A stretch of 44,840 nt of DNA from an uncultured Lachnospiraceae bacterium (GCA_905235345.1 CAJOLO010000001.1:1-44840); one strand, 5' to 3'. Shown: positions 34,501 to 42,803, numbered from the stretch's first letter. Made by a program: numbers and translations. The notes: a model not told the origin generated them from the sequence alone.

Positions 34501-35895
34501 ATGCCTGGATCTGATAATGAGAAGGATATAGAGATGGTTTCCGAGTCTAAGGAAGAGATGACCTCCGAGGCAGAAGCAAAGAGCGAAGAGCCGGAAGCGA
34601 CCTCCGAGGTAGAAGCAGTATCTGAAGATGAGCAGGATCAGATAGAAACAGAGCAGAAAGAGGCGATTTCCGATAAGAATAGCGAGCTTCTAGAGCGTAT
34701 GAGCCGGATGGAAGCTGAGATGGAAGCGGAGAAGGAAAGGCTCAAGAAGGAACGCCTTGCCTTTCAGGAGGAGCGCAAGCGCTTTGAGGAGGAGAAGAAG
34801 GCCTTTGAAGAAATGAATGTTAATGTGGCTTTTAACAAACAGGCAGAGCCGGATAAGAATGCTCAATCGGCAGTTGCGAATCAAAAAGCTTCCGATATGA
34901 CGGGCAAACCTGCCGACAAACAGTCTGCAAAACCTGAGAAAGAGGGCGTAGTAACCAGGAAAGGCAATTATAATGAGATGAGTATGGCGGATGATTCCAT
35001 TACATTGAAGCAGGCGGATCAGGCGGCAAAGCTTAAGATTACCGCAGATATGTCTGTGCTTGCCCAAAAGTCATCCAGGGAATTCAAGAAGATGCAGGCA
35101 GCAGTTGACAGGTTTGATAAATTCATGAAGGGTATGGGAGGCAGGACAACATTTTCCGCTGAAGAGCTGGAGAAGTACGATAAGCTGTCTCATGATGTTT
35201 ATAAGGCATCGGATGAATATCTGAAGAAGAAAGAACAGGATATGGAAAAGCGTGCTCCCGGTAAGGACGGCCAGAAGAAGCAATCTGACTATGAATATTC
35301 CAGAATTAAGGCGGCAGAGGAGATCAGAGAGAGCGTAGAGCAGATGCGGAAGGAGATGCTTGAGAAGGCATTCAACGACAAGTTAGAGGAAATGAACAAA
35401 CGCTGTCAGGATCAGCTTAAGAATCTTGAAAACAGCAGAAATAATATGGCGTCTGATAAAGATATGGATCCGGCAAGAAGGGAGTCTCGCCTCGCGGATA
35501 ATATGGCGCATACCATATATTATGGCAATTGCATGAAACAGTTGTCATCCAAGGGCGAACTACAGATGAAGCCGGGGGAAAGCATGAATGCGGCTGTTAA
35601 CAGATTGAATACGGCTATCATTCCCACGAAGAATGAGATTGAGGAAATCAAAGCACATCCGGTTGCCAAGAGAATAGTAGATGCAGGTGTGAAGAATCTT
35701 TCCGAAGGAAAATCATTTACTATGAACGATATGGAAAAGACAATGAAGCAGGCAGCCATGAAGAAGGCTCCTGAGGTGAAGAAGGCAAAGGATATGAAAA
35801 GAGAGCAGGAAAGACAGATGGAGCAGGCAAGACAGAGGGAGGCAAGGCAGACGAGAAGAAAAGCGCCTGAGAAGAAGGCTCCGGCACGGACATAA
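34501..35895 (+). CDS. Signal-less Glu/Lys-rich coiled-coil protein (464 aa) with a strongly basic C-terminal tail. Candidate secretion substrate.
   Basis: ORF track 34474 (TTG). AGGAGG at 34488-34493 favours ATG 34501 (MPGSDNEK). EAEMEAEKERLKKERLAFQEERKRFEEEKKAFEE is coiled-coil-like. The tail ends ...REARQTRRKAPEKKAPART. Confidence 0.75.
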   Translation: MPGSDNEKDIEMVSESKEEMTSEAEAKSEEPEATSEVEAVSEDEQDQIETEQKEAISDKNSELLERMSRMEAEMEAEKERLKKERLAFQEERKRFEEEKKAFEEMNVNVAFNKQAEPDKNAQSAVANQKASDMTGKPADKQSAKPEKEGVVTRKGNYNEMSMADDSITLKQADQAAKLKITADMSVLAQKSSREFKKMQAAVDRFDKFMKGMGGRTTFSAEELEKYDKLSHDVYKASDEYLKKKEQDMEKRAPGKDGQKKQSDYEYSRIKAAEEIRESVEQMRKEMLEKAFNDKLEEMNKRCQDQLKNLENSRNNMASDKDMDPARRESRLADNMAHTIYYGNCMKQLSSKGELQMKPGESMNAAVNRLNTAIIPTKNEIEEIKAHPVAKRIVDAGVKNLSEGKSFTMNDMEKTMKQAAMKKAPEVKKAKDMKREQERQMEQARQREARQTRRKAPEKKAPART

Positions 35896-35918
35896 TTTTA
35901 TATTAATATTATTTCAAT

Positions 35919-42600: not shown

Positions 42601-42803
42601 TATCTGAGGTTAAGAGAAATCTGGATGATAAGGTGATTGACATGGCTGCCGGTCCTATCATGCAGTCCAAGGGATTTTCTGAGGTTGTAAAAAAGAGCAG
42701 TGCGGACAAACTTAAGGAATCATTTGAACAGATGGGAAGAAAGAAGCCTGTAAAGAATACAGAAAAAAAGAAGGATGTTAATAGAGGGGTTAACAATCTA
42801 TAA
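39696..42803 (+). CDS. Large signal-less protein (about 1035 aa) with a GHSRG nucleophile-elbow alpha/beta-hydrolase (lipase/esterase-like) core and a basic C-terminal tail. Candidate effector.
   Basis: ORF track 39687 (GTG). ATG 39696 follows AGGTGA. The motif is IQINITGHSRGAVASAES, with the Ser codon at 40980-40982, followed by FDLLQRDPVPGFG. The tail ends ...GRKKPVKNTEKKKDVNRGVNNL. Confidence 0.75.
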   Translation: MALVESVSKVLDRICEEYDKERNLGALNYDRVDKYREICGDILTGRMNALSDSGEMDSMEYAQCSFMKKTLDNGWTPKDLSFFSKLYDGVQALPDGPEREKGLNLFSKLENNKTDTFEKRGEMLADIAGFVIPVMHGHQDISDSLTMEMNAFMNAKVSYAEYPEDAKLEEGFAKDGTFDPQLVVWNKVDLNIRQALLVGRENHLKRLENEKQKIRKKEDYIMTEMSDDALEHIEFNYGQKKRGIVKTNRQAIKEVFGEEIYDDIDEAHKGTKEERKVIIHHSKGNRKLRDGADVLEFDLAGSGFNEARKEYRGQHGNAKVRNVSKEELERSLLVQYGKKAKDNKGNTFEKIRVKEKEVKVGDKTFTKKRYTISGPDVVNGLINIGKHSIENNVEYVRDFAKSHIKTLFEKWARGEEEPHDIQINITGHSRGAVASAESVIYINDWMKDYAKQHPECEKYLSHVKFDLLQRDPVPGFGTSIRFGSRDLRDIPNLNATMFCTMGQEWPDIAFLPENVRGAKRIVIGTTEHGMDLSRIDLSQINQKDDGLSHQAGFYNAENGEYYRGSGIAEMPEGVYIADDRNNVVRITSYSQMGKLVSAVHEGAEKDMQTGRVGIIHEMVRDWFVDNTLSISYQSETERYAMQDKGKDAMDKIMKSNVSRLKPVKKEIEKLDKLMASGASKEEIMEANKGLIKACKAYVGKTKVPCTGDSEYRMNLVSDVLTFTERENNYLERGLDSKKDMTREGSLDRQIAREEKRLANDKDIKIMMDDAAKACRNSLKVLSETGKGKSNSAEYVDLVKALKLGSTLSQNRSIDDYTRIMSNLKRAADTYVKTHEGLLVGPVSDDGKTRLKYAQVMSTYTSENIQVMDEKARTVGDRSASIDRVVEKRTNKIESLNIRKKNGNTKLTESELVKEQLEEKIRIESDRYDRIRRSGSKPALAMNNVEMIAARLVYLKTVEEACRENGYANLSEVKRNLDDKVIDMAAGPIMQSKGFSEVVKKSSADKLKESFEQMGRKKPVKNTEKKKDVNRGVNNL

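Follow-up and report, generated by a model that had tools for sequence, protein, structure and literature searches.

Does a monoderm bacterium use a type IV secretion system (T4SS) dedicated to protein effectors? Nearly all known functions of Gram-positive T4SS are DNA transfer, and the existence of dedicated effector translocators in Gram-positives has been a long-standing question (December 2025 review, PMC12857230). The question is raised by a 44.8-kb stretch of DNA from an uncultured Lachnospiraceae bacterium (here termed the window, meaning the whole stretch), in which every real gene is located on the plus strand. The window carries a T4SS island that ends with four genes, here named A, B, C and D; a small membrane protein is encoded near its left end, beside the regulators. 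An earlier note on this DNA had proposed A, C and D as T4SS substrates. Our analysis suggests that these three proteins are the cargo (effectors) of a chromosomal, relaxase-less T4SS encoded at 3.2-14.8 kb, a reading that we consider fairly probable. They combine the properties of T4SS substrates: no Sec signal or transmembrane (TM) segment, an unstructured net-positive tail, and linkage to and apparent co-regulation with a T4SS.

34501 to 35895, plus strand: A, 464 amino acids (aa), signal-less, monocistronic; acidic, coiled-coil-rich N-terminal part and a tail ending ...RRKAPEKKAPART
36119 to 36700, plus strand: B, 193 aa, the detached N-terminal domain of an ancestral effector of ~1150 aa
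36724 to 39681, plus strand: C, 985 aa, signal-less, predicted all-helical, ending ...NKKAPKKSEPKKGNPTK
39696 to 42803, plus strand: D, 1035 aa, signal-less; N-terminal GW module, putative Ser hydrolase domain, helical C-terminal domain and basic tail

Proteins without a Sec signal carry basic C-terminal tails

The ATG starts at 34501 (MPGSDNE), 36119, 36724 (MPGNDNN) and 39696 are each located 6-10 nt after an AGGAGG-like ribosome binding site (RBS), which confirms the coordinates, starts and RBSs of the earlier note. The absence of Sec signals that it had reported for A, C and D was confirmed too and extends to membrane segments: hydropathy and direct reading of the N-termini revealed neither a Sec/Tat signal nor a membrane segment in these proteins, and the 19-residue Kyte-Doolittle maximum is below 1.0 in A-D, whereas Sec-dependent and membrane proteins encoded at the locus reach 1.7-3.4. 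The C-termini read exactly as quoted before and are strongly basic; the tails are disordered and Lys/Pro-rich, and those of C and D are part of disordered sequence in the AlphaFold2 (AF2) models, as judged by the predicted local distance difference test (pLDDT).

35803 to 35892, plus strand: last 30 residues of A, net charge +5
39589 to 39678, plus strand: last 30 residues of C, net charge +8, pLDDT <50
42711 to 42800, plus strand: last 30 residues of D, net charge +5; last 11 residues pLDDT <50

Comparison with the background showed that such tails are not ordinary. Large unannotated proteins of the window and two related loci have a mean charge of +5.1 over their last 30 residues versus -0.8 for 46 neighbours (Mann-Whitney U test, p 1e-5), the candidate sets of this comparison being partly picked by eye. 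When the sets were defined by homology, the mean was +4.3 for family members from 32 other genomes versus +0.85 for 235 other open reading frames (ORFs; p 3e-9). In 113 full-length family representatives, a set likewise defined by homology, 67% of the tails have a charge of at least +3, compared with 12% of the interior 30-residue windows of the same proteins. Lys (2.17-fold), Pro (1.85-fold) and Gln (1.7-fold) are enriched in these tails relative to the interior and aromatic residues are depleted; Arg is not enriched (ratio 0.83), and the Agrobacterium-type Arg consensus (R-x7-R-x-R-x-R-like) is not found in the tails. A recurring KK(A)P element had been described for A, C and D. All three tails contain it. 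Within the families it is confined to a minority of tails, K[A]P being found in 27% of the tails of the 113 representatives versus 7% of the interior windows. About half of the D family has no copy of the last ~110-residue helical domain, yet carries the basic tail at the extreme C-terminus. Since the tail follows whichever domain is last, its function seems to be tied to the C-terminus.

The presumed receptor of the tails is the VirD4-type coupling protein of the locus.

4014 to 6038, plus strand: VirD4-type coupling protein, presumed receptor; Pfam T4SS-DNA_transf, TraG-D_C and TrwB_AAD_bind
5946 to 6035, plus strand: last 30 residues of VirD4, net charge -9

VirD4 ends with the conserved sequence FRADEVYYDLDxRNxIVLG, followed by an acidic run, and the acidity of this C-tail is conserved (mean -7.7 over the last 30 residues, n=116 orthologues). 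The charges of the VirD4 C-tail and the cargo tails are thus opposite, making the VirD4 C-tail a candidate docking site.

The N-termini of A and C had been described as sharing the start MPGxDN. The literal match is real (5/7 residues) but does not represent a conserved family N-terminus; as a conserved signal it was rejected, since family N-termini vary. Two start types are in excess among the 113 representatives, MKE/MRE-acidic (30%) and MP[GNK] (23%), and both are found repeatedly in families that have no other relationship (D, C, A and array members). They may represent either a second, N-terminal signal or a translation effect.

A common promoter motif precedes candidate cargo and T4SS genes

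An 18-nt motif, TGCACWTTTGTWGCRCTT, is present in four exact copies in the window, versus 0.01 expected. All copies are on the plus strand and intergenic, begin at 3139, 15252, 34396 and 35983, and are each followed after ~8 nt by a -10-like box. The sequence forms a direct repeat, TTGCAC-N5-T(T/A)GC(A/G)C, with 11-bp periodicity over the -35 position; such a geometry is typical of winged-helix (OmpR/SARP-like) activators.

3139 to 3156, plus strand: motif copy P1, upstream of the first gene of the T4SS block, which encodes the pilin
15252 to 15269, plus strand: motif copy P2, upstream of the genes for a Sec-dependent 728-aa protein and a 2548-aa PLAT giant
34396 to 34413, plus strand: motif copy P3, TGCACTTTTGTTGCACTT, ~8 nt upstream of the -10-like box CTACAAT; would drive A
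35983 to 36000, plus strand: motif copy P4, TGCACATTTGTAGCGCTT; would drive B-C-D
35916 to 35950, plus strand: 16-bp hairpin followed by a U-rich run, folding free energy -15.3 kcal/mol, z -4.0
937 to 3114, plus strand: LytS-type histidine kinase with a response regulator, which presumably act at the four motif copies and may bind to them

Thus, each unit has its own exact copy of the motif, P3 before A and P4 before B-C-D, as claimed previously. The hairpin after A looks like a terminator separating A from the B-C-D unit; a simple consensus terminator scan did not list it. The shared motif suggests co-regulation of A and B-C-D with the T4SS operons.

The motif was also found in relatives, whose loci are given L-numbers (L001, L004, L009 etc.; L001 and L010 are treated as one). 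It is located upstream of the orthologous (B-like) gene in L001/L010, L009 and L022, and in Lachnospiraceae NE2001 variants of it lie ahead of the genes for the pilin, VirD4 and a tail-bearing 284-aa protein as well as ahead of the D homologue. In 32 D-family loci, all six motif matches sit 79-126 nt upstream of genes for signal-less, basic-tailed proteins; upstream of D homologues the motif was found in only 1 of 30 cases. Most D homologues are operon-internal or are orphans in distant species, so that the motif test is informative only for close relatives and NE2001.

The machine is conserved and the candidate cargo is variable

D homologues were found on the same contig as a VirD4 orthologue in six genomes. 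In NE2001, D is located ~60 kb downstream of VirD4 on the same strand and is surrounded by an array of genes for large basic-tailed proteins with no or weak Pfam matches; similar arrays are present in L008, L015 and L036. VirD4 is 79-93% identical across rumen Lachnospiraceae (listed orthologues) and D ~40% in the same genomes; VirD4 is at most 29% identical to any plasmid type IV coupling protein (T4CP). Effector gene content differs from genome to genome. A conserved VirD4 beside a divergent D and a changing set of effector genes fits a conserved machine with fast-evolving cargo, not a mobile conjugative element. Named genome records with D-family members that are not metagenome-assembled genomes (MAGs) are Eubacterium ruminantium FB3002, Lachnospiraceae bacterium NE2001 and YSB2008, and among these an orthologous VirD4 was confirmed only in NE2001.

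One neighbour of D in NE2001, a 1331-aa basic-tailed protein (L004 5869-9864, the same as L023 5839-9834), starts with MPGSYDKS and matches the PI3_PI4_kinase catalytic region (28.8 bits versus a cutoff of 27.1) as well as Fam20C. This is a eukaryote-like kinase signature within a putative effector array.

None of the four proteins A-D has a match in Pfam (E up to 0.1), NCBIfam, PADLOC, PHROGs or PDB sequence searches. Homology to DNA-processing cargo, which had been named as a finding that would speak against the substrate proposal, was not detected in A, C or D, nor was homology to phage or defence proteins. Protein A has no homologues outside close relatives. Its orthologues, of 456-508 aa, occupy the corresponding place in L009, L010 and L022 (62% identity for the L001/L010 copy), start with MPG or MPE and end in KKTAPARA-like tails. 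For C, five homologues were found, one identical, one partial (78%) and three proteins from rumen Eubacterium/Lachnospiraceae with 34-38% identity; all full-length ones are basic-tailed. The AF2 model of C is all-helical with a disordered tail (pLDDT 75.5, moderate) and gave no significant Foldseek match.

The small protein B had been suggested to be an adaptor or chaperone. In the closest relatives (L009, L010/L001, L022) the slot between A and D is occupied by a single gene of 1151-1172 aa, and B is 39-74% identical to residues 1-190 of the protein of this gene in L009, L010 and L022. Beyond the B-like part, the slot protein has a GW module, which reads GLENGWDIED in L001, and its body is not related to C. 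In the window, the slot retains B only, and C follows with its own RBS; a stand-alone B orthologue was not seen. Since the B-like sequence is fused into a 1151-1172-aa protein in relatives, the chaperone role is abandoned. By its sequence, B is what is left of an effector gene that was displaced, and it speaks for an exchange of cassettes.

C and D share a helical module

C and D had been considered paralogues on account of a shared internal sequence. Pairwise BLASTP among A-D gave no significant match, and whole-protein paralogy was therefore rejected. What C and D have in common is a helical module of ~100-160 residues, GW[ST]PxD, which proved to be real: alignment of the C and D families with hhalign gave a probability of 92% and E 5.9e-7 over 151 columns, and a hidden Markov model (HMM) of the D-family module gave matches to C (E 1.6e-10) and to the 1154-aa protein of L001, which represents a third family (E 7.6e-6). 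BLASTP of C against D did not detect the module (E 2.2).

37300 to 37860, plus strand: GW[ST]PxD module in C, aa 193-379 with the core at aa 271-369 (hhalign, HMM)
39723 to 40205, plus strand: GW[ST]PxD module in D, aa 10-170; G74, W75 and D79 invariant and R120 nearly so (22 sequences)

G-W-x3-D is invariant in the module and an Arg ~45 residues downstream is nearly so. Protein A has the tail and does not have the module. An exhaustive search of 1.84 billion representative proteins with the module profile gave 104 clusters, 68 of them at E <=1e-10. The proteins are 700 to 4,800 aa long, with the module N-terminal or internal, and most full-length members are basic-tailed; all members with a named source are from Lachnospiraceae or Eubacterium MAGs. 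Such few and lineage-confined matches suggest that the module is a rare, lineage-restricted building block of large modular proteins.

Some module-bearing proteins from Lachnospiraceae MAGs (P0227, P0230, P0255 and P0259) are 4.6-4.8 thousand residues (kaa) long and contain 3-4 GW-x3-D copies, ~360-1100 residues apart; these giants may be multi-effector fusions. No Pfam domain was found in five large module members that were scanned directly (including P0227 and P0230). The bulk Pfam scan of module-bearing proteins gave single-member matches, e.g. the insect allergen repeat and HEPN-like domains. P0186, which has a hydrophobic, signal-like N-terminus, is probably the source of the insect allergen repeat match; it appears to be an unrelated protein with repeats that fits the profile in part.

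Weak BLAST hints (E 0.004-0.03) had pointed to a second shared helical motif in A, C, D and the 1154-aa protein of L001. HMMs of three C-terminal regions of D matched nothing outside the D family, and this motif was therefore dropped.

Protein D is a candidate serine hydrolase

All 51 proteins of the D family are hypothetical, and none has a Pfam domain. The GTDB species set contains 32 loci of the family, all in rumen Lachnospiraceae, Eubacterium ruminantium, Oribacterium and related MAGs. Modelling, which had been recommended for the detection of enzymatic domains, gave a Ser hydrolase fold for D (AF2, Foldseek); for C no fold match was obtained. The AF2 model of D has a pLDDT of 91.8 and a predicted template modelling (pTM) score of 0.88.

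40974 to 40988, plus strand: nucleophile elbow of D, G427-H-S429-R-G431, between strand 421-428 and helix 430-452

G427, S429, R430 and G431 (GHSRG, within the motif GHSRGA) are invariant in 51/51 sequences. D471, H528, D536, Q539 and H549 are invariant in the 22-sequence alignment and at least 90% conserved in all 51. In the model, D471 (DPVPG) comes directly after strand 463-470 and H528 after strand 520-524; candidate catalytic partners of S429 are D471 or D536/D545, and H528 or H549. D has the nucleophile elbow of the alpha/beta-hydrolase fold, G-x-S-x-G, together with a conserved acid and His. The sole Foldseek match below E 1e-3 is Legionella lpg2422/Lem25 (E 1.7e-4, probability 0.98), followed by TleB, Tle1 and assorted lipases/esterases at E ~0.1-0.3; for Tle1/TleB the probability is 0.18-0.89 (6ski_F and 6sjl_E 0.84-0.89) at E ~0.1. 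The sequence-profile search of the PDB gave no match, nor did the search for DUF2235 in Pfam at E up to 0.1. On the grounds of fold and motif only, we call D a putative divergent Ser hydrolase of the lipase/Tle1/Lem25 type. Most likely, it would be a (phospho)lipase or esterase acting on target membranes.

The T4SS and the neighbouring genes

The genes of the T4SS itself are located in the left part of the window.

3259 to 3747, plus strand: VirB2-like T4SS pilin (PF18895, E 2e-9), heads the T4SS operon
7156 to 10614, plus strand: VirB6-like polytopic channel protein (NCBIfam MMCAP2_0566 conjugal transfer, E 9e-35; Mbov_0396 integrative and conjugative element TM)
10666 to 14820, plus strand: VirB4-like ATPase (PF19044 TraG P-loop, DUF87) with N-terminal TM segments and a long acidic C-terminal extension

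The potential for conjugative pili has been treated as unique to Patescibacteria among monoderms (2025 review, PMC12857230); for comparison, a VirB2/TrbC-like pilin (PF18895) opens the T4SS operon of this monoderm. A bitopic 350-aa protein is encoded between the VirD4 and VirB6-like genes. The C-terminus of the VirB6-like protein consists of ~14 tandem repeats of ~22 aa, GANTIPENQSVQVGGNSSYETST (window 9100-10610), and the extremely acidic C-terminal extension of the VirB4-like ATPase, ~400 residues long, contains three GGIGFSEMTEEEYEDTDEE repeats (window 13800-14200). The net charge of the whole ATPase is -148; a 378-aa protein of the locus is also acidic-tailed. No relaxase, integrase or other DNA-processing protein was found among the large ORFs of the window, the flanks of the relatives' loci having been examined as well, and no oriT-like feature was detected in the window.

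At the head of the locus, the kinase/regulator pair is kept in L006 and L007. The C-terminal ~140 residues of the response regulator (2296-3114) match no family in Pfam and NCBIfam scans.

VirB4 is followed by a STAS protein and then by the Sec-signal proteins of 728 aa and 2548 aa (window 15437-25357), which are under motif copy P2. In the 2548-aa giant, a PLAT/LH2 lipid-binding domain is combined with internal YRYDD...FQYD repeats and with a C-terminus that is rich in Thr and Glu but has no recognisable sorting motif. Its orthologues, of 1950-2002 aa, come after STAS in two other genomes, and it could be a contact or adhesion factor of the system. Next are two proteins without assignment, an RsbW-type kinase, an LPG_synthase_C protein, a major facilitator superfamily (MFS) fusion and a membrane PP2C (SpoIIE) phosphatase. 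A 406-aa protein (25447-26667) has an N-terminal TM anchor and ends with ...SISKKGPKK, the L001 orthologue with ...SVSKKGPKK; this ending resembles the KGPxx endings of many candidate effectors.

A partner-switching set is complete inside the locus, with a STAS antagonist (14888-15220), the RsbW-type kinase (27890-28456) and a HAMP-PP2C/SpoIIE protein (32701-34356); no sigma factor is located near these genes. The NE2001 locus contains STAS and two SpoIIE genes and the JNLK01 locus STAS. Partner-switching in a T4SS locus recalls the BtrUVW control of type III secretion in Bordetella. Between RsbW and SpoIIE (28547-32704) are the genes for the LPG_synthase_C (MprF C-domain-like) protein and the 1047-aa MFS fusion. 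L001 and L009 are without these two genes and have a DegV fatty-acid-binding protein after SpoIIE instead (L001 4008-4916). These varying lipid-related genes may be tied to self-protection from, or substrate supply for, the lipase-like D. On the 3´ side of D, the window has an unrelated ABC_ATPase gene and the relatives have SbcCD, showing that D marks the edge of the locus.

Proposed mechanism and alternative explanations

The following series of events would connect these observations. The two-component system of the locus would activate the four motif-bearing promoters and with them the pilin/T4SS genes (VirD4, VirB6-like, VirB4), the genes for the 728-aa protein and the PLAT giant, A, and B-C-D. 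The signal-less proteins would be made in the cytoplasm and dock on VirD4 via their disordered Lys/Pro/Gln-rich C-terminal tails, with the conserved acidic C-tail of VirD4 as a possible docking site. Export would proceed through the VirB4/VirB6 channel across membrane and wall, and the proteins would reach the medium or a cell to which the giant adhesin holds on, where D could act as a Ser-(Asp)-His alpha/beta-hydrolase of the Tle1/Lem25 kind. The GW[ST]PxD module, found in D, C and ~100 Lachnospiraceae clusters, may serve in delivery or targeting and would travel together with cargo bodies that vary. Cargo genes would be exchanged as cassettes, with B as the N-terminal stump of one such exchange. 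We infer export, the tail as signal, the VirD4 tail as receptor, the lipase activity and the nature of the target from sequences and models.

The proposal that A, C and D are T4SS substrates stood up to the computational checks that could have spoken against it: the tails are unusual, homology to DNA-processing proteins was not found, motif and contig are shared with the T4SS, and D has a fitting fold. What fell away were the role ascribed to B, the paralogy, the MPGxDN start and a match to the Arg type of tail. Several observations weigh against the proposal. The hydrolase call for D combines a motif with weak fold scores, with whole-chain template modelling (TM) scores of 0.14-0.2. No conserved immunity-like neighbour of D was found in 30 loci, which makes a classical antibacterial toxin less likely; the missing immunity gene would be explained if the target were eukaryotic or if the enzyme were active only in the target. 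The VirB1-type wall hydrolase and the VirB8-type protein that are part of the Gram-positive minimal T4SS model (PMC12857230) were not recognised in the locus and are maybe among the unassigned ORFs. One of the charge comparisons used hand-picked proteins in part, and tails that are Lys-rich without a strict consensus could serve another purpose, e.g. binding of anionic lipids or polymers. Many D homologues in distant species are single orphan genes among housekeeping genes and have no recognisable motif. The evidence from linkage and shared regulation is thus not applicable in those genomes, and orphan D genes fit with dispersed effector genes.

The proteins might be exported by the T4SS and use the tail not as a signal but as a polybasic anchor, attaching them to anionic lipids of the target or to wall teichoic acids/anionic polymers of the producer; VirD4 would then recognise another element, e.g. 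the GW module or the N-terminus. Tails composed mainly of Lys, Pro and Gln without a strict consensus would agree with such an anchor, and polybasic membrane-targeting tails, which are established knowledge, would suit a lipid-directed enzyme such as D. The non-random N-termini (MKE/MRE-acidic 30%, MP 23%), the GW module as the best-conserved shared element and protein A, with its tail but without the module, are further points in its favour. The tails are however found on every family whatever its enzyme domain, A and C have no lipid-related features, the conserved acidic tail of VirD4 is complementary in charge, and a positively charged C-terminus is the signal in established VirB/D4 systems, so that we regard the anchor as unlikely. 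If A, C and D were instead cytoplasmic accessory or regulatory proteins (scaffolds, assembly factors or enzymes remodelling the cell's own lipids) that are not exported, their basic tails would bind the acidic VirB4/VirD4 extensions or the membrane. This is compatible with the promoter motif common to machine genes and with a locus rich in very acidic proteins (VirB4 with -148, VirD4 and the 378-aa protein with acidic tails), and export of A, C and D is itself inferred. Machine parts, however, are normally conserved and single-copy, with 80-93% identity for VirD4 versus 30-45% for these proteins, and the families have 1 to >8 members per genome, orphans off-locus, cassette swaps and multi-module giant fusions, making a role inside the cell quite unlikely.

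Exit by means other than the T4SS (lysis, vesicles or a pathway not recognised so far), or a conflict system that has no relation to the T4SS and only happens to be next to it, would account for the many D homologues far from T4SS genes and would fit with a T4SS in which recognisable VirB1 and VirB8 components were not found. We consider this very unlikely in view of the motif common with T4SS operons in the window and NE2001, the presence of D and a VirD4 orthologue on the same contig in six genomes, and the absence of matches to known defence, phage or polymorphic-toxin trafficking domains. Conjugation is the ancestral function of T4SS and basic tails can bind DNA; A-D could therefore be DNA-associated passengers (anti-restriction, SSB-like or primase-like) of a DNA-transfer apparatus, in agreement with the transfer of plasmid-encoded proteins by F-type systems (PMC8406263). 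With no relaxase, integrase, oriT-like feature or DNA-processing homology in the window or in A-D, a locus that is chromosomal and apparently vertically conserved, and a D that resembles hydrolases of the lipase type, this explanation is highly improbable.

If export of A, C and D by the T4SS is combined with the other observations, a wider picture can be drawn. A vertically inherited, relaxase-less T4SS would be a dedicated effector translocator in monoderm rumen Lachnospiraceae, with its own two-component switch and gating by a partner-switching (STAS/RsbW/PP2C) module. Its effectors would be lineage-specific and modular, without known domains, built from GW modules and exchangeable cargo and up to 4.8 kaa long. 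Their signal would be of a new kind, namely a disordered, Lys/Pro-rich C-terminal tail that the acidic VirD4 tail recognises, and at least one of them (D) would be a Lem25/Tle1-like lipase. The targets may be rumen eukaryotes (ciliates, fungi), a possibility suggested by the lack of immunity genes together with the PI3/PI4-kinase-like catalytic loop in the neighbouring effector of NE2001. We put this picture forward tentatively and lean slightly towards doubt for the whole. The locus makes the question of Gram-positive effector translocators concretely testable, as it offers a machine and a regulon motif that are both defined, candidate substrates whose candidate signal is simple and transplantable, and the acidic VirD4 tail as candidate receptor. 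Furthermore, it defines several protein families without existing annotation, which are restricted to abundant rumen fibre-degrading bacteria and could shape interactions with other rumen microbes or protozoa.

Comparison with known systems

VirE2, VirE3 and VirF of Agrobacterium and the Beps of Bartonella require an unstructured net-positive C-tail for coupling-protein-dependent transfer. A, C and D resemble these VirB/VirD4 substrates as signal-less cytoplasmic proteins that are encoded or co-regulated with a T4SS. The Agrobacterium signals are Arg-based (R-x7-R-x-R-x-R-like), the Beps combine a BID domain with the tail, and the hosts are diderms targeting eukaryotes. In contrast, the tails described here are Lys/Pro/Gln-rich without an Arg pattern, a BID domain is absent and the host is a monoderm.

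The chromosomal T4SS of Xanthomonas and Stenotrophomonas is devoted to proteins and its X-Tfe substrates are large modular enzymes including lipases (PMC6536674, PMC8740702). In both systems the effectors share an element that VirD4 reads or, in the present case, may read, and their genes are found next to the locus as well as elsewhere. In X-Tfe, this element is the XVIPCD, a folded C-terminal domain of ~120 residues, and an immunity gene adjoins each effector. Here, the folded GW module is N-terminal or internal and the C-terminal element is a short disordered tail; neither an XVIPCD (no Pfam match at E up to 0.1) nor an immunity gene (no conserved neighbour of D in 30 loci) was found.

The nucleophile motif of DUF2235 is GFSRGA. 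D shares the G-x-S-R-G-A motif (GHSRGA in D) and has a weak similarity in fold (Foldseek E ~0.1) with the DUF2235 proteins Tle1/TleB, which are secreted membrane-attacking effectors on the type VI secretion spike, paired with Tli immunity lipoproteins. The best structural match of D, Lem25, is a type IVB substrate of the Gram-negative pathogen Legionella pneumophila. This Dot/Icm effector (lpg2422, PDB 4M0M) consists of an N-terminal helical bundle and an alpha/beta-hydrolase with a Ser/His/acid triad and has no known activity (PMC11696984). D is similar in having a helical N-terminal part and a hydrolase domain, and different in sequence, with 11% identity, whole-chain TM scores of 0.14-0.19 and no sequence-profile match.

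Among Firmicutes, polymorphic toxins of the LXG type are exported by type VII secretion systems. A-D have no LXG, WXG100, PT-TG or other Pfam/NCBIfam domains, the locus does not encode an EssC-type ATPase, and a conserved immunity-like neighbour was not found. The locus also differs from conjugative T4SS and integrative and conjugative elements, with no relaxase or integrase among the large ORFs and a VirD4 whose identity to plasmid T4CPs does not exceed 29%.

Among Gram-positive T4SS, only the 89K system of Streptococcus suis, with the substrate SspA-1, has been reported to secrete a protein effector (PMC12857230). It is located on a pathogenicity island, has the standard VirB1/3/4/6/8/D4 set and releases a single protease substrate into the medium; descriptions of an effector superfamily, a C-terminal signal or a regulon of its own do not exist for the 89K system. 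The literature searched contained no description of the present locus, system or protein families. We regard the proteins described here as candidate T4SS effectors with a putative C-terminal charge signal, found in a monoderm, belonging to new protein families and carrying a tail of the Lys/Pro type.

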